From an uncultured bacterium (lineage in GTDB: Bacteria; Zixibacteria; MSB-5A5; JAABVY01; JAHJOQ01), in the NCBI GenBank assembly GCA_965369655.1, contig CBDUQR010000002.1:1-64000 (forward strand): DNA of 64,000 bases. The letters run 5' to 3'. The notes beneath the pieces were generated by a model that did not search any database, was not told the origin of the DNA, and saw only the letters and a program-made list of their open reading frames with translations. Positions 12,492 to 64,000 of the stretch are shown here, one piece after another (position 1 is the first letter of the stretch; every line of letters begins with the position of its first letter). The position numbers and the translations under genes were made by a program.

Positions 12492-14090
12492 CTACGGGTA
12501 ATACGGCGGTGGACCGCCGGCGAATATGTAGTAGATCAGGTAAACTACATCATCGATATCCATCGAGCCTGACGCATCGGCATCCCCCGAACGAATAGGA
12601 TCAGGAGCAGGACCGCCTCCGAATATGTATTCGATCAGGTATACAACGTCGTCTATGTCGACAATACCTTCACCATCCGCATTCCCCGCCACAAAATCAG
12701 GCACGAGTGTATTGGCAAACACATAACTCGCCAGGTCCCAGTTGGAGACGCCCATATCCGGCTTGTATGACCACTGATAGTAGACAGTCATTGACACGGA
12801 TGGATCGACGCCGACAGAAACCCAGCCATCGACCAGATTATAGCAATACTCGTCGAATCCGAGCTTCACATCATCGACAAACACCGAATCTATCGAATGC
12901 AGGGGACTTCTGTTCAGATAGTATAGATGCCGCCCCGGTGTCGTTGCGATACTCTCAGTGTAGTATCCGACTCCATCGCGGTCGACATCGGCAAACTGAA
13001 TCTCCTCGATCACGCTCGAATAGCCGCTGCTGCTGTACCATGCCGGGCTGGTCGTGAGTGTCGAGCCGGTGTTTTCGTAAATCATTACTCTCGACCACCA
13101 TCTGCCCGTTGCGAGGTCCATATCGCCGTCGTAGTCAATATCGCACCAGCAAACGGACGATCCGTATCCACCCGTACTCGATTGCCAGTAGGGTGTCGTA
13201 CCGAGAATCCCGCCAAGATTGCGGTAGACTTTGAATTTGCCTCCACCGCCAAGCTGATCATTGTCGGCGACAGCCAGATCGAGCCATCCATCACCATCAA
13301 TGTCGCCAAACGCCAATGTGTTCGACGACTCGACATCGCTCGATTGCCAGACCGGCGATGTTGATATCGTGCCTCCGACGTTCTCATATAGCAGGACTTT
13401 CGTGTTATCACCGCAGAACGCAATATCGAGATCGCCGTCGTTGTCGACATCGCCTAACGTGACATCGATCATCGAGTATATTCCATCCGACTCCCACGAT
13501 GGCATAGTCTCAAACACGCCGCCGATGTTATAGTGAATCCGCTGATGATCGAGGTGCCCGTAATACCCTTCACCGCATGCATTCACCAGATCGAGATCAC
13601 CGTCGCCATCAATATCTCCCAGGGCGCATGAAAATGACCAGGTCGAATCGGTCGAGCTCCACCACGGAGCGTATTGCATGGTCCCGGCGTTGTTGATATA
13701 TGCGTCCTGCTTGTTCGGGGTGGAGAATCCTCCCGAGCCGAGAAAATTCGAGACCACCAGTTCCGGATAGCCGTCGAAATTGATATCCCCCACCGCACAG
13801 TGACCCGAATACTCGTAGTTGAGCGACTGCCATGTCGGATATGTCGGTACGCTGCCTGCGTTGTTTCTGAAAATGTAATTGCGAACCATCTCGATATCGT
13901 TGCCATTGGAAATAAACAGATCGAGATAGCCGTCCCTGTCGAGGTCATGCCACTGTAGGCCTGTGTGGTACTTGCCGTTGCCGTTGGAATTCTGCCAGAA
14001 TGGTTCGGTCTCGATTGGCATGACCGCCAGTGCGCTGGACGCCATCAGGGATATGAACAGCACATAAACATATTTGATTGTGAATCTCAT
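12492..14090 (-). CDS. Secreted FG-GAP/VCBS beta-propeller protein with C-terminal dockerin
   Basis: Signal peptide; about 7 DxDxDGxxDL repeats; GNADGEGIVDIDDVVYLIEYIF and GDADASGSMDIDDVVYLIYYIF. Confidence 0.85.
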   Translation of the reverse strand: MRFTIKYVYVLFISLMASSALAVMPIETEPFWQNSNGNGKYHTGLQWHDLDRDGYLDLFISNGNDIEMVRNYIFRNNAGSVPTYPTWQSLNYEYSGHCAVGDINFDGYPELVVSNFLGSGGFSTPNKQDAYINNAGTMQYAPWWSSTDSTWSFSCALGDIDGDGDLDLVNACGEGYYGHLDHQRIHYNIGGVFETMPSWESDGIYSMIDVTLGDVDNDGDLDIAFCGDNTKVLLYENVGGTISTSPVWQSSDVESSNTLAFGDIDGDGWLDLAVADNDQLGGGGKFKVYRNLGGILGTTPYWQSSTGGYGSSVCWCDIDYDGDMDLATGRWWSRVMIYENTGSTLTTSPAWYSSSGYSSVIEEIQFADVDRDGVGYYTESIATTPGRHLYYLNRSPLHSIDSVFVDDVKLGFDEYCYNLVDGWVSVGVDPSVSMTVYYQWSYKPDMGVSNWDLASYVFANTLVPDFVAGNADGEGIVDIDDVVYLIEYIFGGGPAPDPIRSGDADASGSMDIDDVVYLIYYIFAGGPPPYYP

Positions 14091-14257: not shown

Positions 14258-17005
14258 CTATTTGAGAAGAATCATCTTCCGCGTGTCGATCAGGTCGCCT
14301 GCGGATATGCGGTAGAAATAGACGCCTGAAGCAAGTCCGCTCGCATTGAACTCAAACTCATGCCAGCCCGAGGGCATACGCTCCCAGATATGCTTCTCCA
14401 CTGTGGAGCCGAGCAGATTGATAATGTCTATCGTGACTCGCGAAGAATTCGGGATATAGTAACGGATCGTGGTAGTTGGATTGAACGGGTTCGGGTAATT
14501 CTGTGCAAGCGTGAATTCGCCCGGCAGGATGCTCTCTCCCGGATCGTCGGCGCCAGTCGTACCATAGTAGTAAGTGTTGGCGAATATATCGAAGCCGGAA
14601 CCCATGTTTCTGTTATCATGCCAGACCGCATACACGTCGTCCGCATCTATCGCCAGCCTGAGGTGCCCCTCTTTCGCTTGTGCGGTCGACTGCGAGACAG
14701 GAATGATCGAGCCTGCGTTATCGTCAGGAGTTACGATCGCCATGTACGCCTGCTCGACGCCAGTCCGGGAATCTGTCCACCCGACTACAATGTAGCCCGA
14801 GGCATCCGTTGCGATAGTAAGATTGCTGAAGACAAGATCAGTCGAGCTCGTGATGGTGATGAGTCCACCCTGCGGATCGCCGGACGAACCGAAACGCCGC
14901 GCGAATATTGATCTGACTCCTGAGTCTGACATGCTCCCCCACGCCATCACATAGTCGCCGCTCGACGGTACTATTGCCAGCGCTACTGCATTATGAGATA
15001 CGTCAGCAGTATCAGTCGAGATCAGAGTGTTGCCACCCGCAAGAGTCCCGTCTGGATTGATCCGCTGGAAGAACGCGAGCTTTCGTTCTCCGACCTCTCC
15101 CAACCATGCTACCACGCTGTAGGTATTGTCATCGATGCAGACTTCAGGAGAGCCGCAGGTCGATATGGATGGGTCCGTGTTGATCTTCACATTTGTCATA
15201 TACAGCGAGCCGTTTGATGCGATCTGCTGAGCATATATGTCGCCGTTTGTGCCATCCTCCCAGACCACGATTGATCTGCCGGTAATCGAATGGTCAGCGT
15301 CTGGATTTATCATGTTTGCTGTGGAGGTGTCGTCGTTAAGAATTATCTCCACGTCGAGCGGTGTGCCGGATGAACCGTATCTGCGAGCGAAAATATTGAT
15401 TCCGGCTAACCCATCAGATGTTCGAGCGTCCTGCCACACGATGACAAAATGTCCATCGGTTGATCCGCCGACTGCTGCCTGCGACTGCAAAGTCGCGCCG
15501 ATATCCTGATTGACCTTCTGATTCGAACCGAGCAAACTGCCTGTACCGTCGACTCGTTGAAAATAGATATCCCCGCAGTCATACCTGGCATCCTGCCATA
15601 CCGCAACGACGTCACTGCCGTTCAGAAGCGCAATGTCGGGCTTCACCTGCTGTGCGCCGGTCGCTAAAGACGGCACGAGCACATTGGAACCCTCGACGGT
15701 TCCGGAATCACTCAGACGCTGAAAGTATGTATCCTGCTCGCCGTCTCTGATATCTGTCCATACGACGACCGGAAGATTGTCGTCGCCTATGTCCATCTGT
15801 GGATAATATCGATCGTTGAATACGATCGGATCGGAAATCGTTATGTTCACACCGTCGCGGTCGCCATAGTTGTCGAGTCGAGTTCCGAGAATCTCGGCAC
15901 GCTCGCCATAGCTTGCCCATGCCGCCAGAATCGAGCCGTCAGCCGCAGCCATACTCGTAACATCCCAGCAGACATAGTCCGGATTGTCGCTCAGGATGAA
16001 ATTTGATCCGTTTTTGTTTCCGTTGTAGTCGACTGTCTGGGCGTAGGCCGCCTGCGCGCCGTTTCTGGCGTCGATCCAGCTTGCGACATACCCGGACCCG
16101 TCCAGATGCGCCACCGACGCCTGGAATTGATCTTCCGCGCCGTGTGCCGGATTAGGCAGCGATATCAGCCCGGAGATTTCGGAACCGCCCGCAGTATATG
16201 TTTTCATCACGACACTCGCGCCTATTGACGTTATCTCTTCCCATGCTACGGCGAATCCGGATGCGCCGCCCAATGCCACACTCGGCGACCAGAAACTCGA
16301 ATTCGACGCCGGCACGTTGAGCCGGAAATTCCCGCCGAGAGGATCGAATGCCGGAGTGTATATCTGTGCATAGATATTGTCACTGTTACGGCTGTCCTCC
16401 CATACGATCACAAGACCGCCGCCCTGAAGCCAGACGACATCCGGGAGATTGCAGACGTTTTCGCCCGCATTGTCGTTGACCTTAAACGATTCGGTGACTT
16501 CCGCGAGGTCTCCATCGAACACCTGACCATACAAGCTGCCGTCGGAATCGATCCATACAACGACCAGATTCCCCGAAGAGTAAGTGTCACATGATGCCAT
16601 GCGCTGGTCCCCGTGAGCATCGTCGAATATCAATCGAACGTTGCCGCCAACGGCTGAGTTCTCGGAGTTGAATACCTGAGCATAAATGTCATAATCGCCA
16701 TTTCGATCATCTTCCCATACGACCACGAAACCGCCATCAGGGAAAACTGCGACATCTGCATATCGCTGGTCGAACCTCTCCGGATCGGAATCGGTGTTGA
16801 GTTTCGTGTCGGCAAAAGCCGAGGATTTCAGATTCCACGAATCCTGAACCGTTTCACCGATCACACGTTCCCGGTCGATAGCGCGGTCGATAAGCCTCTC
16901 GGCTCTGCGTGCCTTGTAGTTATCCAGACCGCCTGCCGCGTCGATCTCGGAGCTCGCGGTCAGTATGAATGAGAGAACAATCAAACAACAAACAAATGCT
17001 CTCAT
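14258..17005 (-). CDS. Secreted repeat protein with T9SS type A/FlgD-like C-terminal sorting domain
   Basis: Signal peptide; many VVWxDxR...DIYAQ repeats; LAQNYPNPFNPTT...SGVYFY...RKMILLK. Confidence 0.85.
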   Translation of the reverse strand: MRAFVCCLIVLSFILTASSEIDAAGGLDNYKARRAERLIDRAIDRERVIGETVQDSWNLKSSAFADTKLNTDSDPERFDQRYADVAVFPDGGFVVVWEDDRNGDYDIYAQVFNSENSAVGGNVRLIFDDAHGDQRMASCDTYSSGNLVVVWIDSDGSLYGQVFDGDLAEVTESFKVNDNAGENVCNLPDVVWLQGGGLVIVWEDSRNSDNIYAQIYTPAFDPLGGNFRLNVPASNSSFWSPSVALGGASGFAVAWEEITSIGASVVMKTYTAGGSEISGLISLPNPAHGAEDQFQASVAHLDGSGYVASWIDARNGAQAAYAQTVDYNGNKNGSNFILSDNPDYVCWDVTSMAAADGSILAAWASYGERAEILGTRLDNYGDRDGVNITISDPIVFNDRYYPQMDIGDDNLPVVVWTDIRDGEQDTYFQRLSDSGTVEGSNVLVPSLATGAQQVKPDIALLNGSDVVAVWQDARYDCGDIYFQRVDGTGSLLGSNQKVNQDIGATLQSQAAVGGSTDGHFVIVWQDARTSDGLAGINIFARRYGSSGTPLDVEIILNDDTSTANMINPDADHSITGRSIVVWEDGTNGDIYAQQIASNGSLYMTNVKINTDPSISTCGSPEVCIDDNTYSVVAWLGEVGERKLAFFQRINPDGTLAGGNTLISTDTADVSHNAVALAIVPSSGDYVMAWGSMSDSGVRSIFARRFGSSGDPQGGLITITSSTDLVFSNLTIATDASGYIVVGWTDSRTGVEQAYMAIVTPDDNAGSIIPVSQSTAQAKEGHLRLAIDADDVYAVWHDNRNMGSGFDIFANTYYYGTTGADDPGESILPGEFTLAQNYPNPFNPTTTIRYYIPNSSRVTIDIINLLGSTVEKHIWERMPSGWHEFEFNASGLASGVYFYRISAGDLIDTRKMILLK

Positions 17006-17041
17006 GGACACCTCAGCTTGTGACAAGTCATATCATGTTCC

Positions 17042-37741: not shown

Positions 37742-38578
37742 ATGAAGTGTTCGACCAGTATCATCCTGACAATCCTGCTGTCGATTTCGTTTATTGGCAG
37801 TACGGCATTGGCACAATTACCGGGGGACTGCAACGGATCTGGAGGAATCGACATCGACGACGTGGTTTTAATCACATCCTACTTGTTGGAAGGGGACCAA
37901 GTTCCGACACCGGAATCAAGATCGAACTGTGACTGTGACAATAACCCTGGAATCTCGTTGGCTGATGCAGCGTTTATTATAGAAAGCATCTTCAATGGTC
38001 AGCAGTTGTTCCCGCCGACTGGCACAAAACTGACCAGGGGTTCCAGATCGACGATGTTCACAGGCGGACGGGCTACCGGGCTTCCGGGCATGGACAGGAT
38101 AACTGTCCACATCGCAGTCGAGCCAAATGAAACCATCAACGGATTTCTGATACCGTTCTCTTACGCTTCACTGGCAGGCGACGCGGATATAAGCCTGACA
38201 AGCGTCGATTTTACGGGTTCCCTTCTTGAAGGATCGATAGTAGCGGTTATTGACGATTCGAACAAGGTTCTCATGCTGTATGATGATCCACTTGCTCCGC
38301 CGAGTCTTACAGGGGGGACAATTGGACTTCTGGCCACTGTCTACTTCACCCAGAATGCTCCCGGGAACGCTGTAGCGCTTCTCAAGACATCGACCGACAG
38401 GGTATCGCCGCTGCTCTTCCCGGAAGATTTTGTGAGTGATGATGGAGCACGGGTGCTTTATCCGGGCTTTGTCGAAAGGCCTATTGGCGATATTGACTGT
38501 TCATACTCCGTGGATATTGACGATGTTGTTGGAATGATAGGTTACATTTTTTCCGGCTTGCCGATCTGTTACTGGTAG
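37742..38578 (+). CDS. Secreted dockerin - cohesin-like - half-dockerin protein
   Basis: Signal peptide; PGDCNGSGGIDIDDVV, DCDNNPGISLAD; central GFLIPFSY..LTSVDFTGS..GLLATVYF; GDIDCSYSVDIDDVVGMIGYIF. Confidence 0.7.
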   Translation: MKCSTSIILTILLSISFIGSTALAQLPGDCNGSGGIDIDDVVLITSYLLEGDQVPTPESRSNCDCDNNPGISLADAAFIIESIFNGQQLFPPTGTKLTRGSRSTMFTGGRATGLPGMDRITVHIAVEPNETINGFLIPFSYASLAGDADISLTSVDFTGSLLEGSIVAVIDDSNKVLMLYDDPLAPPSLTGGTIGLLATVYFTQNAPGNAVALLKTSTDRVSPLLFPEDFVSDDGARVLYPGFVERPIGDIDCSYSVDIDDVVGMIGYIFSGLPICYW

Positions 38579-49093: not shown

Positions 49094-49121
49094 TTGACAC
49101 ATTGCGTGTACCTGTTATATT
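49094..49121 (+). promoter_or_regulatory. Putative sigma70 promoter of the scaffoldin-like gene
   Basis: TTGACA-16 nt-TATATT with a TG extension. Confidence 0.5.
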
Positions 49122-49378: not shown

Positions 49379-52300
49379 ATGAAATCTGCGAAATTCTTAG
49401 CAATCTTTGTGGTACTTGCGGTTCTCTTTGCCGTTCCTGCGTTCGCGCAGGATACTGGCGTTCTGGACACCGTCCGCTGGGTACCGGAGAGTACGACGTG
49501 GACGATCGATGCCGCAGGAGATTCGCTCTTCTCGATCGAGGTCTTTGGCTGGACGGACCAGAGTATTACAGCTCTTTCACTCGGTTTCAAGATCCCGACG
49601 AGCTCCGGTGGCGGCACCGGTCATGATGATTCGCTGATAGTGGTTGATTCATTTAATTTCACTATGTCGACGGGCTTTCCAGTACCATGGGCCTGGAGCG
49701 CGGTGGATTCAGCGCGCTTCGCAGATGATTTTCTACGGCACAGCTTGTACAATGGCATCCTGCTCGGACGGATCATGCCGACCTTCCCTGCGAATACATC
49801 ATCTAAGATTGGTGATCTGTTCATCAATATCCCTGATCCCACCTTGCTGCCATGTGAGTTCGACATAGCTATCGACTCGGTCTTTTTCCCGCCTGCTGGG
49901 GCTTTCAAGTTCTCTCCCTCTGGCGGCTCAGGCTACGCGCCTGAGTATGTAGGTGCGACAATTCATGTGGTGAACAATATCTGTATTCCTGATGAGGAAC
50001 CGACAATTTACCTCAATCCGACAAGCTTTACATTTAACGCTGTCGAGAATGGTTCCAATCCGGTCGCGCAATCACTCAGTATCATTAATACAGGTTCTGG
50101 AACACTGAACTGGACAGCATCAGTTGATCAGACATGGTTGACTCTTGCCGCATACAGTGGTACAGGAGATGGTGCAGTAAATGTATTAGCTAATAGAGGT
50201 AGTTTGACTGCTGGCACTTACAATGGTACGGTGACAGTGTCTGATCCTGCGGCGACGAATAATCCGCAGACAGCATCAGTGACATTTATCATTGCACCGG
50301 CTCCACCTGAGATCGTGCTCGATACGACGAGCTTTACGTTCGATGCAATTGAAGGTGGACCGAATCCGGATGATGATACTCTCTGGATCTCAAATGGCGG
50401 TGGTGGAACGCTCGACTGGTCGGTTGGCGATGATGCAACCTGGCTGACCACTACTCCCGTTGCGGGTACCGGAGACGGATACACCGTCCTGAGCGTGAAT
50501 GTCTCAGGCCAGCAAGTCGGCACTCACGTTGCGACTGTTTTTGTCACCGATCCTGCCGCAAGCAATACTCCTCAGACGGTTGATGTTACACTGAATATTG
50601 TATGCGACCCATCTGAGATAGAGGTGACTCCGTTGAGTTTCACATTCGATGCTGTCGAAGGTGGACCGAATCCACCGGCACAGAATATGTTAATTGGAAG
50701 TAGTGGTTCTTGCGACGTCAATTGGACTGCAACGATTATAGCTGGATGGCTTTCACTTTCTGAATATTCCGGAACTGCGGCGTCGAGTGTCGATATTTCT
50801 GTGGACATCTTGGGATTAGACGCCGGTACTTATGAAGATACTATCGTGATTTCACACGATGGGATCAATGAAAGTCCCGTTAAAGTTCCAGTGACGCTGT
50901 ATGTTAATTGCATTCCGGCAGAGTTGGAGACTTCACCATCGAGCTTCGCTTTTGATGCTCAGGAGGATGGCGCAAATCCGACCCCGCAGATCCTGCACAT
51001 TACAAATGGTGGGACTTGTGAACTATATTGGGGTGCAAGTAATTCTCAGCCCTGGCTCACGCTTTCTGATTACTCTGGAACTGGCCCCATTGATATCGAT
51101 GTCATGGTTGATATAACCAGCATGACTGCTGGCGAGTACCACGATACGATTGTCGTATTCGATGATGGCAGTCAAATTGACACCATACCTGTTGTGCTCA
51201 CAATCGGTACAGAGCCGCTGTTGATGGTTGCGCCGAGCGAGCTCAATTTCACCGCTCCGGATGGCGGACCGAATCCTGCTTCTCAGGATGTTGATATTAC
51301 ATCGACCGACTCGCCTGATACGGAGCTTGAGTGGGTCGTTATTGAGCCTGGCAAGCCTATCGCCTGGTTGAGTTATGATCCGGCTTTGGGCACCACCCCT
51401 TCGGTTATGACTGTCAGTGTAAATATGGATGGGCTGTCTGCGGGTGTTTACAACGACAGCATAATGCTTACGAAGAATGTTCCGGACAAGGACGATATCG
51501 GCGATACGGTGACTGTCTATGCTGAATTGACGGTTACTGGTGTTCCGGAAATCGATCTGATTCCGAATTACTTCTTCTTCACCTGGGAAGAGGGTTCACC
51601 GATTGTTCCTGATGACCAGGATATGAATATCACCAACACAGGCTCCGGTACCCTGAACTGGACTCTCTATGATACCGAGCTGATTGGCTGGCTTGATCCG
51701 TCGGCGTTTTCAGGTACCGCGCCATCGGTGGTGACACTTTCGATAGACACTGGTCCATCACTTACAGCCGGCAACATATATGTTGACACGATTGTAGTTG
51801 AATGTGCTGATGCGATCAATCCGCTCGAGATTGCGATTGTCGAGCTTGAAGTGACCGAACCGCCGGTGCTTGACGACGACACGGTCTGGGTTGGAAATAC
51901 AAGCGGACTTCCCGGCGAGCAGGTTATCGTTCCTGTGACTTTCGCCAACAGTGTATATCTGTCAGGCATCTCACTGCCGCTTATCTTTGACGATATGCTG
52001 GCGAAAATCGACAATGGTATTACCTGTGACTCGGTCTCGTTCATCGGGTCGAGGGTCGACTACATTGGCGCGAAGCCAGTCACGATTGACAATATCAACA
52101 AGACTGTACTGGCAGGTGTGATAGTTATTAGCGAGCCGCTAATTCCGGCAGGCAACGGCCTGATGGCGAACCTGTATTTCTCGATCGCTCCGGGCGCCGC
52201 ACCGGGAATCGTTCCGATAGACTCGACGTTTATCCTTCCTGCAAACGAACTGATGTTCGCTGACAGCCTTGGTGGCGCGATCTATCCGGAGTTCTTCTAT

Positions 52301-54418
52301 GGAACAATTGAGATTCTCGAACCACCTTCGACGGCTTGCCTCGAGGTCAGCGATGGCTTCTTTGATTTCCAGGCGATTGTAAGCGGTCCGAATCCTTACG
52401 ATCAGTACCTTGACATCATCAACTGTGGTGATGTGGAACTCAACTGGGATGCCTGGACTCATGTAGGTACGTGGCTGAGCATCGATCCAACAACGGGAGT
52501 GGATGATGCAACGGTGACTCTCTCAGTCGATATTACAGGTCTTCCGGAAGGTGATTACATCGATTCAATTACTGTTGATGCCGGTGATGCCGACAATTCA
52601 CCGCAGTACGTACATGTTGACTTGCACGTTGGCCCGCCGTTGTCACAGTACATCTCAGGCGTCGTGCAGGATCCTGCCGACGTAGTGATTGACGGCGCGA
52701 CTGTCGAGCTCTGGGATGTGTTCCCCACTGGTACCATCCTCGAGACGGCAACTTCAGCAGGCGATGGTTCGTTCATGTTCACTGGTTACACAGGTTATTA
52801 TGTGGTCCGTGCGTACAAGAACGGTTACTATCAGAATTTCATGGATGTGACCGCGCCAGACGAGGCTGTTGTCATAGTCCTGACGCCGACTGGCACGCCA
52901 ACTCCTACCAACGAGTGGGTGGATCTCTACTGTGACATGGCCATGTTCGAGGATTATCCGATCCTCCCGGGTGATGTCGTAGAAGCTTACGATCCGGACG
53001 GTATTCTCTGCGGTCAGTATTTCGTCACCGAGATTGGCAAGTACGGCTTCATGCCGGTCTACCGCGACGACGACTTCACACCTGGTATCGACGAAGGTTG
53101 TGATCCGGGTGACGCGATCACGGTGATGCTCAACGGCTTCGATATGACTCCGTACCTCGGTGCTCCGTTATTCTGGACCCAGAATGGTGACAGGATCGAA
53201 GCATGCTTCGATGGTTACATCATCGACGAGATTTGCATGGATCTCTGCGAGGGTTGGAACCTGATCTCGTGGAATGTCGATACGGAAGTTGACGACATCG
53301 ACGTCGTTATGCTTCCGATCATGGATTACATTGACGTCATGCTTGGATTCGAACAGGGTGCGTTGACGTTCGATCCCGATTATCCTGAGTTCTCTACGCT
53401 CGAGTTTGTCGACCACTACCACGGTTACTGGGTCAAGATGACTCAGGCTGCCGAGTTCTGCGTATCAGGTTTGCCGGTCGATCCATCGACGCCAATCTCT
53501 CTCGAAGAAGGCTGGAACCTTGCGTCCTATCTGCCTGATGGCGTTATGGCCACAGAGGAAGCTCTGGTTTCGATTCTTGACGTGCTGATCGTCGCTCTCG
53601 GATTCAACTGCGAAGAGGGCGGTATGGTGTACGATCCTGAGAATCCTGGCATGTCTGACCTCGAATTCCTTGGCCCAGGATTTGGATACTGGTACAAGGT
53701 CACTCAGGATGTCATGCTGACCTATCCGAGCGATGTTCCGTGGGCTGCGATGTTCTCCGGTGAGCCGGACAAGACATCGGCCAAGCTTGCCGTGCTGAAA
53801 GATGTTACTCCTACGACTCAGTGGGTGGATATCTTCGGCGGCAATGTCACGATTGACGGTCGTGCGCTTGCAACCGGTTCGATCGTCGAGGCTGTCGATG
53901 AACACGGCGCCGTTTGTGGCGCGTTCGAGATCAAAGCCTCCGGCAGACTCGGTTTCATGGCGGTCTATGGCGATGACATGACAACTTCAGATACGTACGA
54001 AGGTCCGACTACGGGCGGTACGTTTTACCTCGTGGTGGACGGCATCGCGACAGAGGAGACATTCGTGTGGACCGGGCACGGCGAGCGTGTCGAGATCGGC
54101 GCCCTGAGCTCTCTCGGTGGCGGCGGCGTAACGCTTCCGGATGCTTACGTACTGGAGCAGAACTATCCGAACCCGTTCAATCCGAAGACCAGCATCTCGT
54201 TCAGCGTCGGTAACGATGCTTATGTGAATCTGGTCGTATACAACCTTCTTGGCGAAGTTGTGAATGTTCTGGTCGATGAATTCAGAGCCGCCGGCGACTA
54301 CACGGTCGACTGGAACGGTGACGACCTGAGCGGACGCACAGTCTCTTCCGGCGTCTACTTCTACAAGCTGACGTCCGGCGACTATACTGAGACCAGGAAG
54401 ATGATGTTGATGAAGTAA
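49379..54418 (+). CDS. Large secreted scaffoldin-like protein: cohesin-like, 7 BACON-like Ig repeats, cohesin, carboxypeptidase-regulatory-like domain, GWNL repeats, T9SS type A-like CTD
   Basis: Signal peptide AFA; repeated 'F.F.A.EGG.NP..Q...I.N.G.G.L.W....WL'; DTVWVG..PGEQVIVPV..LSGISLPL..DSVSFIGSRV..GLMANLYF..IDST; QNYPNPFNP..RKMMLMK. Confidence 0.85.
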   Translation: MKSAKFLAIFVVLAVLFAVPAFAQDTGVLDTVRWVPESTTWTIDAAGDSLFSIEVFGWTDQSITALSLGFKIPTSSGGGTGHDDSLIVVDSFNFTMSTGFPVPWAWSAVDSARFADDFLRHSLYNGILLGRIMPTFPANTSSKIGDLFINIPDPTLLPCEFDIAIDSVFFPPAGAFKFSPSGGSGYAPEYVGATIHVVNNICIPDEEPTIYLNPTSFTFNAVENGSNPVAQSLSIINTGSGTLNWTASVDQTWLTLAAYSGTGDGAVNVLANRGSLTAGTYNGTVTVSDPAATNNPQTASVTFIIAPAPPEIVLDTTSFTFDAIEGGPNPDDDTLWISNGGGGTLDWSVGDDATWLTTTPVAGTGDGYTVLSVNVSGQQVGTHVATVFVTDPAASNTPQTVDVTLNIVCDPSEIEVTPLSFTFDAVEGGPNPPAQNMLIGSSGSCDVNWTATIIAGWLSLSEYSGTAASSVDISVDILGLDAGTYEDTIVISHDGINESPVKVPVTLYVNCIPAELETSPSSFAFDAQEDGANPTPQILHITNGGTCELYWGASNSQPWLTLSDYSGTGPIDIDVMVDITSMTAGEYHDTIVVFDDGSQIDTIPVVLTIGTEPLLMVAPSELNFTAPDGGPNPASQDVDITSTDSPDTELEWVVIEPGKPIAWLSYDPALGTTPSVMTVSVNMDGLSAGVYNDSIMLTKNVPDKDDIGDTVTVYAELTVTGVPEIDLIPNYFFFTWEEGSPIVPDDQDMNITNTGSGTLNWTLYDTELIGWLDPSAFSGTAPSVVTLSIDTGPSLTAGNIYVDTIVVECADAINPLEIAIVELEVTEPPVLDDDTVWVGNTSGLPGEQVIVPVTFANSVYLSGISLPLIFDDMLAKIDNGITCDSVSFIGSRVDYIGAKPVTIDNINKTVLAGVIVISEPLIPAGNGLMANLYFSIAPGAAPGIVPIDSTFILPANELMFADSLGGAIYPEFFYGTIEILEPPSTACLEVSDGFFDFQAIVSGPNPYDQYLDIINCGDVELNWDAWTHVGTWLSIDPTTGVDDATVTLSVDITGLPEGDYIDSITVDAGDADNSPQYVHVDLHVGPPLSQYISGVVQDPADVVIDGATVELWDVFPTGTILETATSAGDGSFMFTGYTGYYVVRAYKNGYYQNFMDVTAPDEAVVIVLTPTGTPTPTNEWVDLYCDMAMFEDYPILPGDVVEAYDPDGILCGQYFVTEIGKYGFMPVYRDDDFTPGIDEGCDPGDAITVMLNGFDMTPYLGAPLFWTQNGDRIEACFDGYIIDEICMDLCEGWNLISWNVDTEVDDIDVVMLPIMDYIDVMLGFEQGALTFDPDYPEFSTLEFVDHYHGYWVKMTQAAEFCVSGLPVDPSTPISLEEGWNLASYLPDGVMATEEALVSILDVLIVALGFNCEEGGMVYDPENPGMSDLEFLGPGFGYWYKVTQDVMLTYPSDVPWAAMFSGEPDKTSAKLAVLKDVTPTTQWVDIFGGNVTIDGRALATGSIVEAVDEHGAVCGAFEIKASGRLGFMAVYGDDMTTSDTYEGPTTGGTFYLVVDGIATEETFVWTGHGERVEIGALSSLGGGGVTLPDAYVLEQNYPNPFNPKTSISFSVGNDAYVNLVVYNLLGEVVNVLVDEFRAAGDYTVDWNGDDLSGRTVSSGVYFYKLTSGDYTETRKMMLMK

Positions 54419-54430
54419 CAGCCCTTTAAC

Positions 54431-54461
54431 GGCAGGGCGGTTAGAACCCGCCCTGCCCTTT
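54431..54461 (+). terminator. GC-rich hairpin between the two CTD genes (terminator or mRNA stabiliser)
   Basis: ggcagggcgg-ttagaac-ccgccctgcc followed by cttt. Confidence 0.6.
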
Positions 54462-54475
54462 CTCGGAGGTGACTC

Positions 54476-55525
54476 TTGAAGAAATTCAAACGTAATATCG
54501 CGAGGCTGTTACCTCTCTTGTTGTTGTCAGTCCTTATGGCGTCATCCGCAAGCGCTCAGGTAATTCCGACAGACCAGTGGGTGCATTTCTGGAGCCCGAG
54601 TTCGACCTTAAATGGACAGCCGCTGCCGATTGGAGCGATTGTTGACACATATGATCCGGACGGCGTACATTGCGGTCGGTTCATCGTCCATACTACCGGT
54701 CAGTACGGTTACCTTTCAGTTTACCATGATGATAGTTACACGCCGGGTGTCGATGAGGGTGCGCTTTCCGGCGATACGATCACAATCATGGTAAATGGCG
54801 TACTGGCAGATGTTCTTGGTCCTGACGATCCCGAGTGGACGTTCAACTTCGCATTTCTGAACATCGACCTGGGCGTTCTGATCAATCTTGCGCTCGAGTT
54901 GACTACTCCACTTGACGACGTGGGAGCGCCAAACGGTTTCGTCGATTACACGTACAAGGTGAAGAATACCGGTGAGGGGATCGATTTCTTCAACCTCGAA
55001 GCTGTTTCATCCGGTGGATGGACAGTCGAAATTCTCGGCGGCGACGCCACAGGCTACCTGAATCCGGGGGAGGAGACAGATGTAGTCGTGCGAGTCCATG
55101 TACCAGGCACTGCCCAGGATGGCGATACCGATGATCTGACTCTGACCGCCAGTTCAGCTATGGATGCCACCGTATCTGAGAGCGGTACAGTGACGACCTC
55201 GGTGATCGAAAGCGCCGCAGGGGATCCCTATGATCCTCTCATTCCGGGCGTGTTTCATCTTCGCCAGAACTTCCCGAATCCGTTTAATCCTGTGACGACA
55301 ATCGAGTTCTCGATCGAAAAGGCGATGGACGTCGAGTTGATCGTTTACAACGTTATCGGGCAGGAGGTCAAAACGCTGGCCAACCGTCATCTGGAGATAG
55401 GCATGCATCAGTTCGAATGGGATGCCACAGATGAGAGTGGACAGAAAGTTGCAAGCGGAATCTACTTCTATCGACTTATCACTGATGAGTACGCGAGAAC
55501 GCGCAAAATGATGCTGATGAAATAA
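54476..55525 (+). CDS. Secreted protein with T9SS type A-like CTD, sharing a domain with the upstream protein
   Basis: Signal peptide; PTDQWV..YDPDGVHCG..VYHDD..TPGVDEG; Ig-like domain; QNFPNPFNP..RKMMLMK; SD ggaggt. Confidence 0.85.
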   Translation: MKKFKRNIARLLPLLLLSVLMASSASAQVIPTDQWVHFWSPSSTLNGQPLPIGAIVDTYDPDGVHCGRFIVHTTGQYGYLSVYHDDSYTPGVDEGALSGDTITIMVNGVLADVLGPDDPEWTFNFAFLNIDLGVLINLALELTTPLDDVGAPNGFVDYTYKVKNTGEGIDFFNLEAVSSGGWTVEILGGDATGYLNPGEETDVVVRVHVPGTAQDGDTDDLTLTASSAMDATVSESGTVTTSVIESAAGDPYDPLIPGVFHLRQNFPNPFNPVTTIEFSIEKAMDVELIVYNVIGQEVKTLANRHLEIGMHQFEWDATDESGQKVASGIYFYRLITDEYARTRKMMLMK

Positions 55526-55550: not shown

Positions 55551-55583
55551 GAGCCCTTCCCATGAGGAGGGGCTCATTTTTTT
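55551..55583 (+). terminator. Intrinsic terminator
   Basis: gagcccttcc-catga-ggaggggctc followed by a T7 run. Confidence 0.8.
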
Positions 55584-56211: not shown

Positions 56212-56616
56212 ATGGATGAAGCTGCAACGCAGCAACAGGACATGGTCGTATCGCCGTTTGCGACCGAGTTTGAGTTTGAACTTCCCAAGGGATACATCGA
56301 CGACTATGGAAACGTGCATCGAGTCGGCAGAATGAGACTTGCGAACGCGAAGGACGAGATAGCGCCGCTTTCTGATCCTTTAGTGAGGGAGAACAAAGCG
56401 TATCTGGTGATATTGATTCTGTCGAGAGTGATAACGAGTCTTGGTAAAATCGAAATCGTCACGCCTGAGACAGTCGAACGATTGTTCTCGGCTGACATTT
56501 CATACCTTCAGGACTTTTATCAGAAGATCAATACCGATGGCGATGCGGTTGTCCCGGCGAAATGTCCGTCGTGCGGGCATGCGTTTGAGGTGGAGTATAA
56601 ATGCCTGGGAAAATGA
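56212..56616 (+). CDS. Phage-tail/contractile injection system tail assembly chaperone-like protein
   Basis: TEFEFELPKGYID..G..HR.G.MRLA.AKDEI.PL.D..VREN.AYL..LILSRVI..LG....V.....E.LF.AD..YLQDFY..IN, C-terminal CPSC. Confidence 0.8.
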   Translation: MDEAATQQQDMVVSPFATEFEFELPKGYIDDYGNVHRVGRMRLANAKDEIAPLSDPLVRENKAYLVILILSRVITSLGKIEIVTPETVERLFSADISYLQDFYQKINTDGDAVVPAKCPSCGHAFEVEYKCLGK

Positions 56617-58517: not shown

Positions 58518-59873
58518 ATGATTAGACTAACTCGCAGAAATACGATTGTAATCATTATTGTTTGCGCACTGGCTGCCGCTTGTGTGACGTCCTACCTGTT
58601 GTTTCTCGTTCCAGCCGATGATCTGGAAATGTCTCTCTCGGAACGGCTCGGTATCGCTGAGCCATCTGGCGAGTTTCGTCTCTGGGTCAACAGTTTTCCC
58701 GAGGGCGCGGAGGTTCTGCTTGATGATTCGCTTGTAGGACAAACTCCTCTCTCGCTGGTGGAGTTGCCGGCTGGTCAGTACCTGGTATCTCTTCGCAGCG
58801 AGCGGTTCCATGCGGTCGATACTATCATTTTGGTTTCTGATGAAGGCAGCGTTGAACTGCCGCTGTTCGTACTCCAGAGGACAATTCGTCTCGAAAGCAT
58901 ACCATCCGGAGCAGTCGTGATTCTGAATGGCGAGGAGCTGTCCGGTGTGACACCAATTGAAATTCGCCAGCCATCGAGCGACACGTTCCTTGTTTCATAC
59001 GCTCACCCTGATCTTGGAGGAATCTGGCTTTCCGCTGTAGACCCGTCCGACGGATCGGCAATCGTTCCGCTGGGTCAGCGATGGGAGATCGACAACGGTG
59101 ACCCATTGGTCCTTCACGGTTTGTTCAGCAAAATGTGCACTCTTCGGACGGTTCCGACTTTTGCTTATATTTATCTGCAAGAGACCGACAGCCTCCTCGG
59201 CCTCACCGGTCAGCCAATTGAATTACCCTGTGGCATGAGGGAATATGTGCTCACGAAAGATGATTTCAACACCCTGACAATCGAACTCGATGCATGTGCC
59301 GAGGGCGCATGGGACAACCTGTTTGAATTGACACACGTTCTCCGTGTAAGCGCGGTCTCGTTCGAAGCGCCCGACGGCGACGACATTGGTGCGATGATCA
59401 CCACGCTTCAAAGTGGATCGATTGTGGAGTCCGTCAATGAGCGGACGCCTGCAGATATTGAACTCAGGGGGGTTGAATACCGACTCTGTCTTCAGGCTGA
59501 TGGCTTCGTTGATACCTGTGTGGTGATATCTGCAAGCCAGACGTTAATCAAGGTGAAAATGAAGAGACGGGGACTTGCTCCAGATCTGTCGGGAGCGGTT
59601 CCGGTCTCTGGCGCCGAGCGGGTAGAGTTCCTGGTGCGCGACAAGAGGAGCAAGTCCGGGCTGCCGGGTGTCGATGTCATTGCGCGATTCAAGAGCGAGA
59701 ACCGGACTGTACTGTTAGGAGTAACCGACAGCGCCGGTTACCTGGCTGTCGATCTTACACCCGGTAAGTATGAATTCAGACTCGTCAAGGAAGGATACAA
59801 GCAGGTCAGGAAGAAACATACCGTGAAGCGGGGCCAGACCAAATGGTTTGACATTTTGCTCAAGACGAACTGA
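58518..59873 (+). CDS. Membrane-anchored PEGA domain protein
   Basis: N-terminal TM; VNSFPEGAEVLLD..GQTPL, ESIPSGAVVILNG..GVTP; C-terminal GKYEFRLVKEGY. Confidence 0.8.
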   Translation: MIRLTRRNTIVIIIVCALAAACVTSYLLFLVPADDLEMSLSERLGIAEPSGEFRLWVNSFPEGAEVLLDDSLVGQTPLSLVELPAGQYLVSLRSERFHAVDTIILVSDEGSVELPLFVLQRTIRLESIPSGAVVILNGEELSGVTPIEIRQPSSDTFLVSYAHPDLGGIWLSAVDPSDGSAIVPLGQRWEIDNGDPLVLHGLFSKMCTLRTVPTFAYIYLQETDSLLGLTGQPIELPCGMREYVLTKDDFNTLTIELDACAEGAWDNLFELTHVLRVSAVSFEAPDGDDIGAMITTLQSGSIVESVNERTPADIELRGVEYRLCLQADGFVDTCVVISASQTLIKVKMKRRGLAPDLSGAVPVSGAERVEFLVRDKRSKSGLPGVDVIARFKSENRTVLLGVTDSAGYLAVDLTPGKYEFRLVKEGYKQVRKKHTVKRGQTKWFDILLKTN

Positions 59874-59965
59874 GTCGTCCCCAATTGTTGCACACAGTCG
59901 GCAGCGTGCGGCGTGCGTCGATTTTGTTGTTGCTATATCTGCACGATCTGTTTTTTAGGTTACTT

Positions 59966-61024
59966 ATGAAAGTTGAGATCATTGGAAAGACCGACGTGGG
60001 ATTGCAGCGTGATGCGAATGAGGATTCGTTCGGCATTCTCGAATCCAAACGCCTGGCTGTCGTGTGTGACGGTATGGGCGGTCATGCAGCTGGCGAAGTT
60101 GCTTCGCGCTGCGCGGTAGATACATTACTGAGTCTGTACAAAGGCGCCGAGATTCCGGATGCTGCAGGCGACGCATTCGAATTGTCACCCGAACTGAGCG
60201 AGGAGGCTCGATTCCTCGTTTCTTCCGTACGAATCGCGAATACACGCACATATCTGATGTCGGAGGCGGACCCGCGACTTGCGGGCATGGGTACGACTAT
60301 TGTCGCAGCCGTATTCAGCGGCGGATCGATCACGATTAGTCATGTCGGAGATTCGCGAGCCTACCGGATCAGGAAAAACAGTCTGAGCCAACTGACCGTG
60401 GATCACTCGCTCGTGAGTGAGTTGCTGGCGTCAGGACGGATCACTCAGGAGAAAGCAGGGGAGTATCCTAATCGCAACATTATCACGCGAGCGCTCGGTG
60501 TCAGGGAACGAGTCAGGGTTGACGTACGCGAGCAATGTGTCGAGGCTGGTGATCTCTTTCTTCTATGCAGTGACGGCCTGACGGGAATGGTGAAAGAGAC
60601 GGAGATTCTTCGCATAATCACTGACAGCGATGGCGACCTCGATACGATGGCCGACAGGCTGATTGCCGCCGCCAATGAGGGAGGCGGTGGGGATAACATT
60701 ACGTGCGTTCTCGCTCGTGTGACCAGTGTCACGGAAAAGGACGTGCATGATGTGGAAATGACAACTCTGACGGTGCCGGAGGAGAGGGACTCGGAGCTTG
60801 CCGCTCAACGTATTGTGAGTGATGCGCTGGAGTCGATGCCCGAGGGCATGGCTGGGAATTCGTCCGGCGCAGATGACGCCGATTCTGCTCCTCCGAAGTC
60901 TCGCAGGTTCCCCGGCCTTCTGATAATCTGTCTGGTGGCCGCAGTGGCGCTGATTCTGCTGGCGTTTGTGGCCGATGTTACCGGTACGCGTGAGGCATTG
61001 TCCCGAATGTTCGGTCTCAATTGA
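59966..61024 (+). CDS. PP2C-type Ser/Thr phosphatase (Stp1/PrpC family) with C-terminal TM
   Basis: TDVGLQRDANED, VCDGMGGH, GMGTT, HVGDSRAY, ITRALG, LCSDGL, GGGDNIT. Confidence 0.92.
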   Translation: MKVEIIGKTDVGLQRDANEDSFGILESKRLAVVCDGMGGHAAGEVASRCAVDTLLSLYKGAEIPDAAGDAFELSPELSEEARFLVSSVRIANTRTYLMSEADPRLAGMGTTIVAAVFSGGSITISHVGDSRAYRIRKNSLSQLTVDHSLVSELLASGRITQEKAGEYPNRNIITRALGVRERVRVDVREQCVEAGDLFLLCSDGLTGMVKETEILRIITDSDGDLDTMADRLIAAANEGGGGDNITCVLARVTSVTEKDVHDVEMTTLTVPEERDSELAAQRIVSDALESMPEGMAGNSSGADDADSAPPKSRRFPGLLIICLVAAVALILLAFVADVTGTREALSRMFGLN

Positions 61025-61187: not shown

Positions 61188-64000
61188 TTAGCAGCAGGCA
61201 GCCGGATCGGGCGCTGGTCCTCCACCGAAGATGTAGTTGATCAGATACACTACATCATCGATGTCGATACCGCCCAAACCGTTGGCATCACCGCAACAGA
61301 TATGATCCACAGGCTCTGGTCCGCCACCGAAGATATAGTTGATCAGATACACCACATCATCGATGTCGACACCACCAGAACCGTTAGCATCGCCCGAAAC
61401 GCAATCGGACACAGGCTCACAACCCGGACAGTCAATGTTAGCACAGATCCAGGTCTTACCCTTATCGATGAGATTTTGCAGATCTGAAAGGCCTGTAAGG
61501 CTCGAGGCCTTCACCTTGCAGTATACGACGCACTCCTCTGCTGCAAGTGTGAGATCCTGAGCGATGACGTACACCGAATTGAGGTCCTCTACTGAATCCG
61601 AGGCGAGAAATCCGGTATGTGTAGCCAACAGATTGCCTATTTCGGCAGGTACATAACCGGAGTTATCATACACCCAGGTGTCGTTTTCGAGGACGATGGC
61701 ACCAACGATATCACCACAGAAGGATGCGCCGCCATAGTAGTCCTCGTAAGGCGAACTGCCGGCGGGACCATACTGGTAGACCATCTGTCTGTCTTCATCG
61801 ACTCCGGACTGGTTGTCACTGCCGTCTTCGCCGTCCGGTATATCCCAGTCGATACCTTCACCGAGATGGATGGTGATAGCGGCATCGGTGTTGTTGCAGA
61901 CTTCAACGCGCTCGATCAGTACACAGACATCCGGGTGCTTCGGCACGTACCACTCAATCACACCGGTGATGGCTGAGTCTGGAGTAGCCCACTCGCCGTG
62001 AGCGTAGTCGTAGTTGACATCATCCACAAGTATCAGCGAGTCTAAAGCGACGAAGCTGACTTTGCTGTTGGAGCCGTCGAACATCGAGAAGAATGTCTGA
62101 GAGACGTCGTCAGCATATGTCACGATGATACCCTCGTCGTACATTGGCGCGAACTCTTCGAGGAACCAGAACATATTGCCGAGATCACTGCGTTGAGCAA
62201 CACCGGCTCTCGGGACGTTCCAGACGCCGATAGACCAGCAAGCGGTCGACAGAATTTCGTATTCCGGCGGGAAGTACTTACAGGCGACCAGAAGGTTGAC
62301 AGGAATGTCGACTTGATCGGAACCTTCAGTACTGGTCAGACTGACACTCACGTTACCGATTTCGGCGGTTTCGTTGGCCACCGGGCCAACGTCCACGGTG
62401 ATAGTGGCTACGGTATTGATACCAGCCGTCACCGTACCGGTACCGCCGGTGATGCTCATCCAGCTTTCAGTTTCGCTTACAATGTAGCCGATCTCGACGT
62501 TACCGGTGTTGACGATAACGACATCAAACGACGTCGTAGTCGGCATCGTGCAGTCGGTACCGCTCGTGGGAGAGATTATCACAGACTGGTCCTCAGGAGC
62601 GACCGAATAGCTGAAAATGGCTTCCGGAGTGAAGCATGGGTACGTGGCGTAGAGAACCTCGTTCTCGGTTTCTTCTCCCTCATCGTGAACGAACGAGCCA
62701 GCGTCATGGTCGCTGACGTAGAAGAGGTGCAGTACACCAGACGAGTATTTGGCCATCGATCCGAAGTTCTCGTTGTGGCATGCACCGGCCACACAGCCGT
62801 CGGAGTATGTATTGGTCAGGTTGACATAAGTGCCGAGCTTGACCGGGACGCCGCTGCCAGCGGTCGTCAGTGTGTCGAATTCGTCCAGGGTGCCGTCGGG
62901 ACCCCATGTGATGCCGCCATCGCTCGATGCAGTCAGGCAGAATTCGCCGTTTGCATAACCATTTGCGGAGCAATCACCGTTGTTGTCACCACGGGGCCAG
63001 GTTCCAAAACGAGTAAACGAAACGTACATGTTGCCGTCGCATTCGGAGATGTTGATTCTGGAAATGGCGCCGAGACCACCACCGATACCGCCGCTGCAGA
63101 ATCCAGTCGGGGAGGTAGCGTCGAGAACGCGCGATATGACGTTGCTGGACTGATCCCAGTGCCACATATTGCCGCGGAACAGCGGCTGGCAAGGATCATC
63201 TTCTCTGAAATCAGGAGTCAGCCAAATGATGTGAAGGTCCCCGTCAGAGTCGTAGACGGCTGATATTTCCGATTGAGCCTTGTGCACAAAATTGATGGGG
63301 TCAAGTGTTCCTCCCTCGGTGTAGTCAGTGATGTTGACTTCCGAACCCCAGGTGGCGCCGCCGTCAGTCGATTCCATGTAGACTATGTCGTGTTGTACCC
63401 ACTGGAAGTTATTGAGATCGCCGGCAGGGTTGCCATCGCCATCACAACTGTTTCTCGGGTCACCCTGCTCGTAGAAAGGTTTGCACCAGATGAGGGCCAC
63501 GTCGTCCGATGTCGGAGCGGGATCAGAGCGAACAGTAGCATTGACCGTATGGGAAGCATCGATGTAGAGGCCGAGCGTGTCGGTAGAGGTACCGGGGCAC
63601 TCAGCGAGATCACCGTCAATATACCGATAGTAGATGATCGATTGTATCGACTCGTCAGGAAGAGCCACCGGCGGCGACTCGGTTGAGACTATGTGCAGTA
63701 TCTCTTCGCCGGTTGTCAGTTTCTGGAACTCACCTACCGGCCAAATGTATGCATCACCTTCATTTGTGCCGGACATTTCTCCCTGGCAGTTCGGTGGACC
63801 CGGCGCCCAGCGACTCACGTCAGGAAGGGCTTGAGGAAAGTAGCCGGACGGTGGCATCATATCTATGCCCGACCTTGTGGAATAGAGCGCCGAACCCGGG
63901 CCTGCATGCCAGAATCCGACCGCAACACCGGCGTCGGTGACGTCAATAGTGGTATATCCGCCATTGTTGGCAGATGCTGAATTCCCGGTGTGGCCCCACA
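61188..64000 (-). CDS. Large secreted protein (BNR/Asp-box-like region, Ig-like domain, C-terminal dockerin); 5' end outside the window
   Basis: Frame stays open to the window edge; STDGGATW and SSDGGITW; GDANGSGGVDIDDVVYLINYIFGGGP and GDANGLGGIDIDDVVYLINYIFGGGP. Confidence 0.85.
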   Translation of the reverse strand, partial: WGHTGNSASANNGGYTTIDVTDAGVAVGFWHAGPGSALYSTRSGIDMMPPSGYFPQALPDVSRWAPGPPNCQGEMSGTNEGDAYIWPVGEFQKLTTGEEILHIVSTESPPVALPDESIQSIIYYRYIDGDLAECPGTSTDTLGLYIDASHTVNATVRSDPAPTSDDVALIWCKPFYEQGDPRNSCDGDGNPAGDLNNFQWVQHDIVYMESTDGGATWGSEVNITDYTEGGTLDPINFVHKAQSEISAVYDSDGDLHIIWLTPDFREDDPCQPLFRGNMWHWDQSSNVISRVLDATSPTGFCSGGIGGGLGAISRINISECDGNMYVSFTRFGTWPRGDNNGDCSANGYANGEFCLTASSDGGITWGPDGTLDEFDTLTTAGSGVPVKLGTYVNLTNTYSDGCVAGACHNENFGSMAKYSSGVLHLFYVSDHDAGSFVHDEGEETENEVLYATYPCFTPEAIFSYSVAPEDQSVIISPTSGTDCTMPTTTSFDVVIVNTGNVEIGYIVSETESWMSITGGTGTVTAGINTVATITVDVGPVANETAEIGNVSVSLTSTEGSDQVDIPVNLLVACKYFPPEYEILSTACWSIGVWNVPRAGVAQRSDLGNMFWFLEEFAPMYDEGIIVTYADDVSQTFFSMFDGSNSKVSFVALDSLILVDDVNYDYAHGEWATPDSAITGVIEWYVPKHPDVCVLIERVEVCNNTDAAITIHLGEGIDWDIPDGEDGSDNQSGVDEDRQMVYQYGPAGSSPYEDYYGGASFCGDIVGAIVLENDTWVYDNSGYVPAEIGNLLATHTGFLASDSVEDLNSVYVIAQDLTLAAEECVVYCKVKASSLTGLSDLQNLIDKGKTWICANIDCPGCEPVSDCVSGDANGSGGVDIDDVVYLINYIFGGGPEPVDHICCGDANGLGGIDIDDVVYLINYIFGGGPAPDPAACC

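Follow-up and report, generated by a model that had tools for sequence, protein, structure and literature searches.

In silico analyses have described two cohesin-dockerin systems that may display peptidases on the surface of diderm bacteria. In Candidatus Stygibacter (Cloacimonadota), a scaffoldin anchored by a C-terminal domain (CTD) was predicted together with dockerin-tagged S8 and C25 peptidases (PMC8542988), and for the Nemodlikiaceae (Planctomycetes) a peptidase-displaying 'planctosome' was put forward as a hypothesis (PMC6461901). Here, we describe a related locus from an uncultured bacterium of the Zixibacteria (assembly GCA_965369655.1; 2.99 Mb, 99.5% complete). The window analysed comprises the first 64,000 nucleotides of contig CBDUQR010000002.1, which is C2 in our numbering of the contigs. 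It encodes a secreted protein, hereafter the stalk, that carries two cohesins spaced by immunoglobulin-like (Ig) repeats of the BACON type and a T9SS (type IX secretion system) CTD of type A. The stalk is a non-cellulosomal cohesin-bearing T9SS protein, and the best reading makes it one of several docking posts in a cohesin-dockerin surface-display system of the protease and adhesin type that is widespread in Zixibacteria.

As far as the accessible portions of the Stygibacter report go, both systems belong to diderms of the Fibrobacterota-Chlorobiota-Bacteroidota (FCB) group, combine a cohesin scaffold with a C-terminal CTD and dockerin-tagged S8 and C25 peptidases, are non-cellulosomal and are known from in-silico work only. 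However, the Stygibacter scaffold is given there as a protein of 3,755 aa with tandem cohesins and carbohydrate-binding modules (CBM2 and CBM3), accompanied by a handful of dockerin proteins including the glycoside hydrolases (GH) GH18 and GH57, whereas the stalk has two dissimilar, BACON-spaced cohesins, no CBM or GH family was found, and 92 dockerin and about 22 cohesin open reading frames (ORFs) belong to a system that occurs phylum-wide. The planctosome, according to the accessible text, is likewise a diderm cohesin-dockerin system for peptidase display, M14 included, with anchoring and adaptor proteins. It differs in its proposed lamin-tail anchor, which takes the place of a T9SS CTD, and in the single cohesin on that anchor, and an exchange of CTD for dockerin is not described in the same text. 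With the anchoring and adaptor scaffoldins of Firmicutes, such as ScaB and ScaC of A. cellulolyticus, OlpA and OlpC of C. thermocellum and ScaC of R. flavefaciens, the Zixibacteria proteins share the type I-like cohesin fold, the duplicated F-hand dockerin and the anchor and adaptor layouts, the scaffoldin classes being those of a RefSeq cellulosome survey (PMC11557425). In contrast to those monoderm systems with S-layer homology (SLH) or sortase anchors and glycoside hydrolase cargo, the present system has a T9SS CTD, a diderm host and peptidases and unknown proteins as candidate cargo; moreover, the tandem near-identical cohesins and the CBM3 of cellulosomes are missing here. Zixibacteria are absent from the main text of that survey, and a literature search, which left subscription journals mostly outside, found no work joining Zixibacteria to dockerins. 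Finally, the stalk resembles the T9SS type A cargo of Bacteroidota in its signal peptide and its CTD scoring over the cut-off, and the genome has the SprA, PorU and PorV genes, but cohesins are present on the stalk and most of the would-be cargo is dockerin-tagged instead of bearing a CTD.

Both cohesin-like domains of the stalk are cohesin-fold. The second one reaches 17 bits with PF00963, below the gathering cut-off of 24.1. A family profile built from 60 sequences matched 30 PDB sequences, all of which are cohesin chains (two matches labelled 'Endoglucanase' are ScaB cohesin chains by title), with type I cohesins as the best matches (E 4.6e-10 to 2.4e-9). Furthermore, 24 of the 60 family members match PF00963 at E<=0.01, and none matches another Pfam family. 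The N-terminal domain has no Pfam match; its family profile aligned end to end with the second cohesin family in hhalign (99.0%, E 3e-18). The structural model of this domain (predicted local distance difference test, pLDDT, 78.7) was computed from an alignment that took in cohesins of the second family and may be biased towards them. Searches with the model returned cohesins in the top 16 rows of Foldseek and in the top 19 rows of VIA (best Z 12.6, root-mean-square deviation (rmsd) 2.5, 134 aligned residues; first non-cohesin Z 8.8). Over the profile and structure searches together, the closest solved cohesins are of type I (4uyp, 1g1k, 2vn5, 6kgc). The unrelated Ig folds that an initial annotation, made from the letters alone, had named as one outcome that would speak against its reading were thus not what these searches retrieved.

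The domain limits (Table 1) were set by Pfam and NCBIfam scans and by iterated profiles built on the ORFs of the genome itself, the signal peptide being read by eye. The ORF starts at an ATG at 49379 that is preceded by an AGGAGG ribosome-binding site. The initial annotation had recognised the N-terminal cohesin-like domain, six BACON repeats, a clearer cohesin, a seventh repeat and the CTD, all of which could be placed. Its length of 1680 aa was one residue too long, its layout skipped about 490 aa between the seventh repeat and the CTD, where an Ig domain, two domains here labelled 'PTN' and a twofold repeat here labelled 'WNL' are located, and its interval for the protein, 49379 to 55525, took in a second gene that lacks a cohesin. 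The two cohesins of the stalk are 24% identical and lie 630 residues apart, and no CBM was found in the Pfam scan. Thus, the stalk lacks the tandem similar cohesins with CBM3 that define a primary scaffoldin of a cellulosome. It does have the cohesins, the surface anchor and the non-catalytic character of an anchoring scaffoldin, with a T9SS CTD in the place of an SLH or LPXTG anchor, as well as the signal peptide and type A CTD of T9SS type A cargo. The model of its CTD matches the CTDs of PorU (Z 11.2) and PorZ (Z 9.4). Fold searches with the 592-aa base block, in which the PTN and WNL parts were hardly probed, gave matches to its first Ig domain and to the CTD alone. An Atlas look-up of the PTN domain of a homologue gave unnamed clusters only, several of them in CTD proteins of Bacteroidota or Fidelibacterota. 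The same PTN-WNL-WNL-PTN-CTD block was also observed under a vWA-like protein without cohesin (C42:244-4143).

The initial annotation had assumed a diderm organism with a T9SS-like CTD, and the T9SS genes for the translocon SprA (692 bits summed), the sortase PorU (642 bits, over the cut-off) and the shuttle PorV (seven family matches in six ORFs) were indeed found. CTDs were detected with TIGR04183 (37 matches) and with a profile built in this analysis (49 ORFs). The binding of CTDs at the SprA-PorV translocon is treated in the accessible text of PMC10994853, which is silent on co-export. The genome also has three secretin genes. In one PorV-family gene, adjoining PorU (C8:42340-45510; 1057-codon frame), about 750 inserted residues interrupt the barrel, with PorV positions 11-52 at the start of the frame and 49-236 at its end. 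A DIDDVV motif in this gene was considered as a link between dockerins and the translocon and was rejected as a chance match inside the helical insert. At C15:17217-19890, a gene of the secretin family was noted immediately upstream of a gene for a cohesin-dockerin protein, beside a chaperone-like Ig protein.

A dockerin profile built from the genome gave 94 matches in 92 ORFs, nearly all of them C-terminal, and PF00404 gave 46. The family profile matched 20 dockerin sequences of the PDB, and the domains show the duplicated Ca-loop-helix unit that characterises type I dockerins, in which loop positions 1 and 12 are Asp. The dockerins of the three window genes at 12492, 37742 and 61188 proved to be real by Pfam or profile. 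They do contain the 'DIDDVV' segment from which a tie to the stalk had been deduced; however, DIDD[VAIL]V occurs in 82 ORFs, the chance match in the PorV-like gene included, and is therefore a genome-wide signature that does not connect these three genes with the stalk in particular. Loop positions 10 and 11 set the specificity of cellulosomal dockerins. Here they are I-D in both repeats, whereas genomes of family f5 of our comparison set have IS, VA/IA or IG, as would be expected of lineage-specific recognition.

The candidate cargo was scanned with Pfam in 88 of the 92 dockerin ORFs, four short fragments being left out, with a cut-off of E<=1e-6 for 86 ORFs and of 0.01 for two more. Peptidase families form the largest named class (23/88) and comprise C25 (six), S8 (five), C10 (three), M14 (two) and, with one ORF each, astacin, M28, C1, trypsin-like, C39, M1 and M6. 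Moreover, a peptidyl-arginine deiminase, FG-GAP and other propellers, TSP3, Ig and beta-helix domains were found; among the 86 ORFs, BNR repeats occur on one and a beta-helix on two, and 41 have no Pfam family at E<=1e-6. The earlier expectation of propeller or adhesin cargo has to be revised accordingly. On the three window genes the initial annotation had recognised no glycoside hydrolase domain, and no glycoside hydrolase family was hit in any of the 88 ORFs scanned; the dockerin-fused glycoside hydrolases by which a cellulosome is recognised were thus not found among them. Two arrangements of dockerin genes were also observed. The FG-GAP gene with a dockerin at 12492 has, directly upstream, a gene for a 922-aa propeller-like repeat protein with a CTD (14258-17026), so that both tags adjoin, and at C4:48634-51709 four tandem proteins of about 250-280 aa without Pfam family have a common Cys-containing dockerin variant.

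In a phylum-wide sample of 121 genomes, dockerins were detected in 119. For a closer comparison, 41 genomes of the class were sorted into families, and dockerins were found in 35 and cohesin-like domains in 34 of them. The seven genomes from f3 and f4, two of these families, yielded 0-2 dockerin matches and no match for cohesins. In a first look, they gave 119-253 CTD candidates (43 in a 52%-complete genome) versus 28-70 in most others, and family f9, with few dockerins and cohesins, gave 88-116; these are candidate counts, which for the present genome amount to 48 versus 37-49 confirmed CTDs. A trend towards more CTDs where dockerins and cohesins are lacking is suggestive. For instance, the C-terminal tag of an M14 carboxypeptidase with a MAM-like domain is a dockerin here, but a CTD in each of the three f3/f4 homologues examined out of 15 matches listed. 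Within the genome, the CTD profile matched in only 3 of the 92 dockerin ORFs. The dockerin may thus work as an alternative to the CTD, as a non-covalent and exchangeable tag for retention at the surface.

The stalk exceeds all other cohesin proteins of the genome in length but is one among several. A cohesin profile, which was built from the same sequences that it counts, found cohesins in 21 ORFs, 11 with a dockerin, five with a CTD and five alone (one weak). The ORF at C28:34250, with Pfam cohesins, an internal divergent dockerin and a CTD, lies outside these and raises the total to about 22 and the number of cohesin ORFs with a CTD to six. Proteins with a cohesin of the N-terminal family are CTD-ended in three cases and dockerin-ended in four. 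The base block was detected in 21 of the 41 genomes, from five families and in dockerin-bearing genomes only; 13 further genomes with dockerins, from eight families, gave no match to this query, several of them having 50-105 dockerin matches. Two or three cohesins are kept in ten stalk orthologues from ten genomes of four families, and one f6 genome has a truncated cohesin-BACON protein that could be a further orthologue. The orthologues have 1500-2300 aa and are kept together with the downstream gene. An adaptor with a cohesin, five BACON repeats and a dockerin is present in this genome and in all four loci fetched for it. Other cohesin-CTD proteins span more families, counted out of the 13 that bear dockerins. 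An 816-aa protein on C28 occurs in 23 of the 41 genomes (10 families), and the cohesin of a minimal protein of about 285 aa, composed of signal peptide, cohesin and CTD (C40:3494-4477), in 29 genomes (11 families), with a frame of 270-330 aa in about 24 of these. The minimal protein is single-copy in this genome, its cohesin is 46-56% identical to orthologues of families f2 and f5, and two orthologues checked in full both end in a CTD; it is the foremost candidate for a carrier or anchor that serves dockerins in general. The stalk is probably a lineage-restricted accessory post, one among several and not the hub. Two further gene groups were noted, a cluster at C28:27009-36535 and a tandem pair of genes at C17:36412-37586. 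The cluster, to which the 816-aa protein belongs, comprises one gene each for a dockerin protein and a CTD protein as well as two for CTD proteins with several cohesins, an internal divergent dockerin being present in at least one of the latter. The tandem genes encode one cohesin each, belong to the five ORFs with cohesins alone and have signal sequences that look lipoprotein-like by eye.

How such a post could work is suggested by its domains. We consider it probable, by a narrow measure, that the stalk is a docking post that is exported and anchored by the T9SS and whose BACON-spaced cohesins bind, in dependence on calcium, peptidases, propellers or adaptors that bear dockerins. The signal peptide would direct Sec export. 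The type A CTD would then take the stalk through SprA/PorV, and PorU would remove the CTD and tie the C-terminal end to the outer surface, a mechanism of export and attachment that is established in Bacteroidota and is carried over here. The base block would come to lie at the cell, with one cohesin near the base and the other at the BACON-spaced tip, roughly 20-25 nm beyond the first when about 4 nm are taken per Ig repeat. With calcium, each cohesin could bind the C-terminal dockerins of secreted peptidases, propellers and proteins of unknown function, and also cohesin-stalk-dockerin adaptors, which would extend and branch the assembly. Its likely purpose would be a protein-degrading, adhesive coat held away from the cell. 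Several findings weigh against this. Both stalk cohesins stay under the Pfam cut-off, and the N-terminal family profile (10 sequences) by itself finds no cohesin in the PDB by sequence. The cohesins of the genome are 18-40% identical to the second stalk cohesin, while the dockerins are uniform, so that binding to the main dockerin class may be limited to a subset of the cohesins, to which the two of the stalk may not belong. Among the base-block proteins fetched, five have no cohesin by profile, and a single cohesin was seen in two full-length and in three partial ones, so that two are not needed in every case. The gene of the motor protein GldM was not found in the genome with a model that also matched nothing in control genomes. 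No CTD is present in 89 of the 92 dockerin ORFs, for whose passage through the outer membrane this reading gives no account. The joint presence or absence of cohesins and dockerins, like the inverse trend of the CTDs, depends on two kin families, f3 and f4, and perhaps on one loss event, and f8 and f10 have few Pfam dockerin matches yet not many CTDs. A complex prediction for the second cohesin, the 12492 dockerin and two Ca ions scored 0.11 (mark 0.32), with the controls not folded, and speaks neither for nor against binding.

A part of these observations could also be read differently. It is rather unlikely, but to be taken seriously, that the stalk serves as a fibrillar adhesin or spacer of the T9SS, in which the cohesin folds have a structural role or another ligand, and that the dockerins are held by the minimal cohesin-CTD protein, the C28 cluster or lipoprotein cohesins. 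The variable number of cohesins (0-3) among base-block proteins would fit a spacer, as would the long insertions of the tip domain and its 6-13% identity to solved cohesins, the occurrence of the base block under the cohesin-less vWA-like protein and the single-copy minimal protein that keeps its own length in about 24 genomes. However, the cohesins sit at both ends of the spacer in ten orthologues of four families, the base block was detected in dockerin-bearing genomes alone, and the paralogues with the same cohesin-BACON front end in dockerins, as adaptor scaffoldins do. The opposite extreme, the stalk as the central primary scaffoldin that displays most of the dockerin cargo, corresponds to the place 'at the centre' that the initial annotation had given it and is the least probable explanation. 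Although its length, its two cohesins with a CTD and the conservation of the large orthologues with their downstream gene would suit such a role, two dissimilar cohesins face 92 dockerin ORFs, five other cohesin-CTD proteins exist in the genome, and the base block gave no match with our query in 13 dockerin-bearing genomes, while the C28 and C40 proteins reach 10 and 11 of the 13 families. The dockerin itself could chiefly be a signal for export or periplasmic retention, the cargo being either recognised directly by a specialised PorV-like shuttle or kept in the periplasm on lipoprotein cohesins, which would make the surface cohesin-CTD proteins secondary. The scarcity of CTDs on dockerin proteins, the common C-terminal position of both tags, the several PorV-family matches and the two tandem lipoprotein-like cohesin genes are consistent with this idea. 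It is nevertheless very unlikely, as the CTDs on six cohesin proteins place sockets outside, the cargo types (C25, S8, M14, C10, FG-GAP, TSP3) are typical of the surface and have f3/f4 homologues with CTDs, and the three secretin genes offer other export routes. For the 89 tail-less dockerin proteins, the options comprise piggyback export with a carrier of the cohesin-CTD kind, a dockerin that is read directly, passage through a secretin and a stay in the periplasm. An extended version of the docking-post reading, in which the dockerin has replaced the CTD as the main sorting tag in most Zixibacteria, and cargo binds a cohesin-CTD carrier (the minimal protein of about 285 aa, or stalks like the present one) in the periplasm, crosses SprA piggyback and stays on posts and adaptors as a branched protease coat, appears unlikely; no literature on T9SS piggyback export of dockerin proteins was found.

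Known cohesin-dockerin systems of comparable size belong to cellulose degraders. In the present Gram-negative genome of 3 Mb, 92 dockerin and about 22 cohesin ORFs were counted, and the candidate cargo comprises peptidases and unknown proteins. If the pairs bind, Zixibacteria would break down proteins in sediments and aquifers with a modular machinery at their surface, and the system could be a source of new orthogonal cohesin-dockerin pairs. The exchange of dockerin and CTD between lineages raises the question of how tail-less dockerin proteins leave a diderm cell. Should the piggyback route apply, it would be an adaptor-mediated type IX secretion and the whole a phylum-wide peptidase counterpart of the cellulosome.

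The features of the locus and of the dockerin genes in the window are listed in Table 1. The PTN-Ig-CTD gene is kept directly downstream of stalk orthologues, and it was observed directly after the PTN-WNL-WNL-PTN-CTD base block in 11 fetched loci, which suggests that both may form a two-protein base module. The hairpin between the two genes could be an mRNA stabiliser or a leaky terminator. Promoter-like consensus sites were found 20 times versus 7.5 expected in shuffles.

Table 1 Coordinates of the stalk, its domains, flanking signals and dockerin genes (positions of the window)
Feature	Position	Strand	Evidence and remarks
Sigma-70-like promoter candidate	49094..49121	+	11/12 matches, extended TG; consensus match only
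Secreted stalk protein	49379..54418	+	1679 aa; signal peptide-Coh-BACONx6-Coh-BACON-Ig-PTN-WNLx2-PTN-CTD (Coh, cohesin)
N-terminal (tip) divergent cohesin	49457..49981	+	Family of 7 in this genome; cohesin-fold by model and profile-profile match
Six BACON_2-type Ig repeats (spacer)	49991..51850	+	Pfam and iterated profile; PF19190 122.5 bits
Second cohesin, type I-like by sequence	51872..52321	+	Family profile, PF00963
Seventh BACON repeat	52325..52627	+	Iterated profile
Transthyretin-like / CarboxypepD_reg Ig domain	52640..52891	+	Pfam; structure match Z 13.6, rmsd 1.8, 79 aligned
Conserved base block	52892..54109	+	PTN-WNL-WNL-PTN; no Pfam family
First PTN domain	52892..53212	+	About 105 aa; no Pfam family
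Two WNL repeats	53240..53731	+	No Pfam family
Second PTN domain	53798..54109	+	No Pfam family
T9SS type A CTD	54152..54415	+	TIGR04183 37.3 bits, cut-off 23
Intergenic hairpin, 10 bp	54431..54457	+	-27 kcal/mol, z -3.0; no clear U tail
Partner gene, 349 aa	54476..55525	+	Signal peptide-PTN-Ig-CTD; no cohesin
Intrinsic terminator candidate	55551..55575	+	Consensus match only; ends two-gene unit
FG-GAP propeller protein with C-terminal dockerin	12492..14090	-	Profile/Pfam; candidate cargo
Small dockerin-cohesin-half-dockerin protein, adaptor-like	37742..38578	+	Profile/Pfam
Large secreted protein, one BACON-like repeat and C-terminal dockerin	61188..64000	-	Starts past the window edge; stop-to-stop frame reaches contig position 64430

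Downstream of the two-gene unit, a small ORF (56212-56616) without family match lies near PEGA and PP2C phosphatase genes (58518-61024); it presumably resembles an assembly chaperone of the phage-tail or type VI secretion system type.

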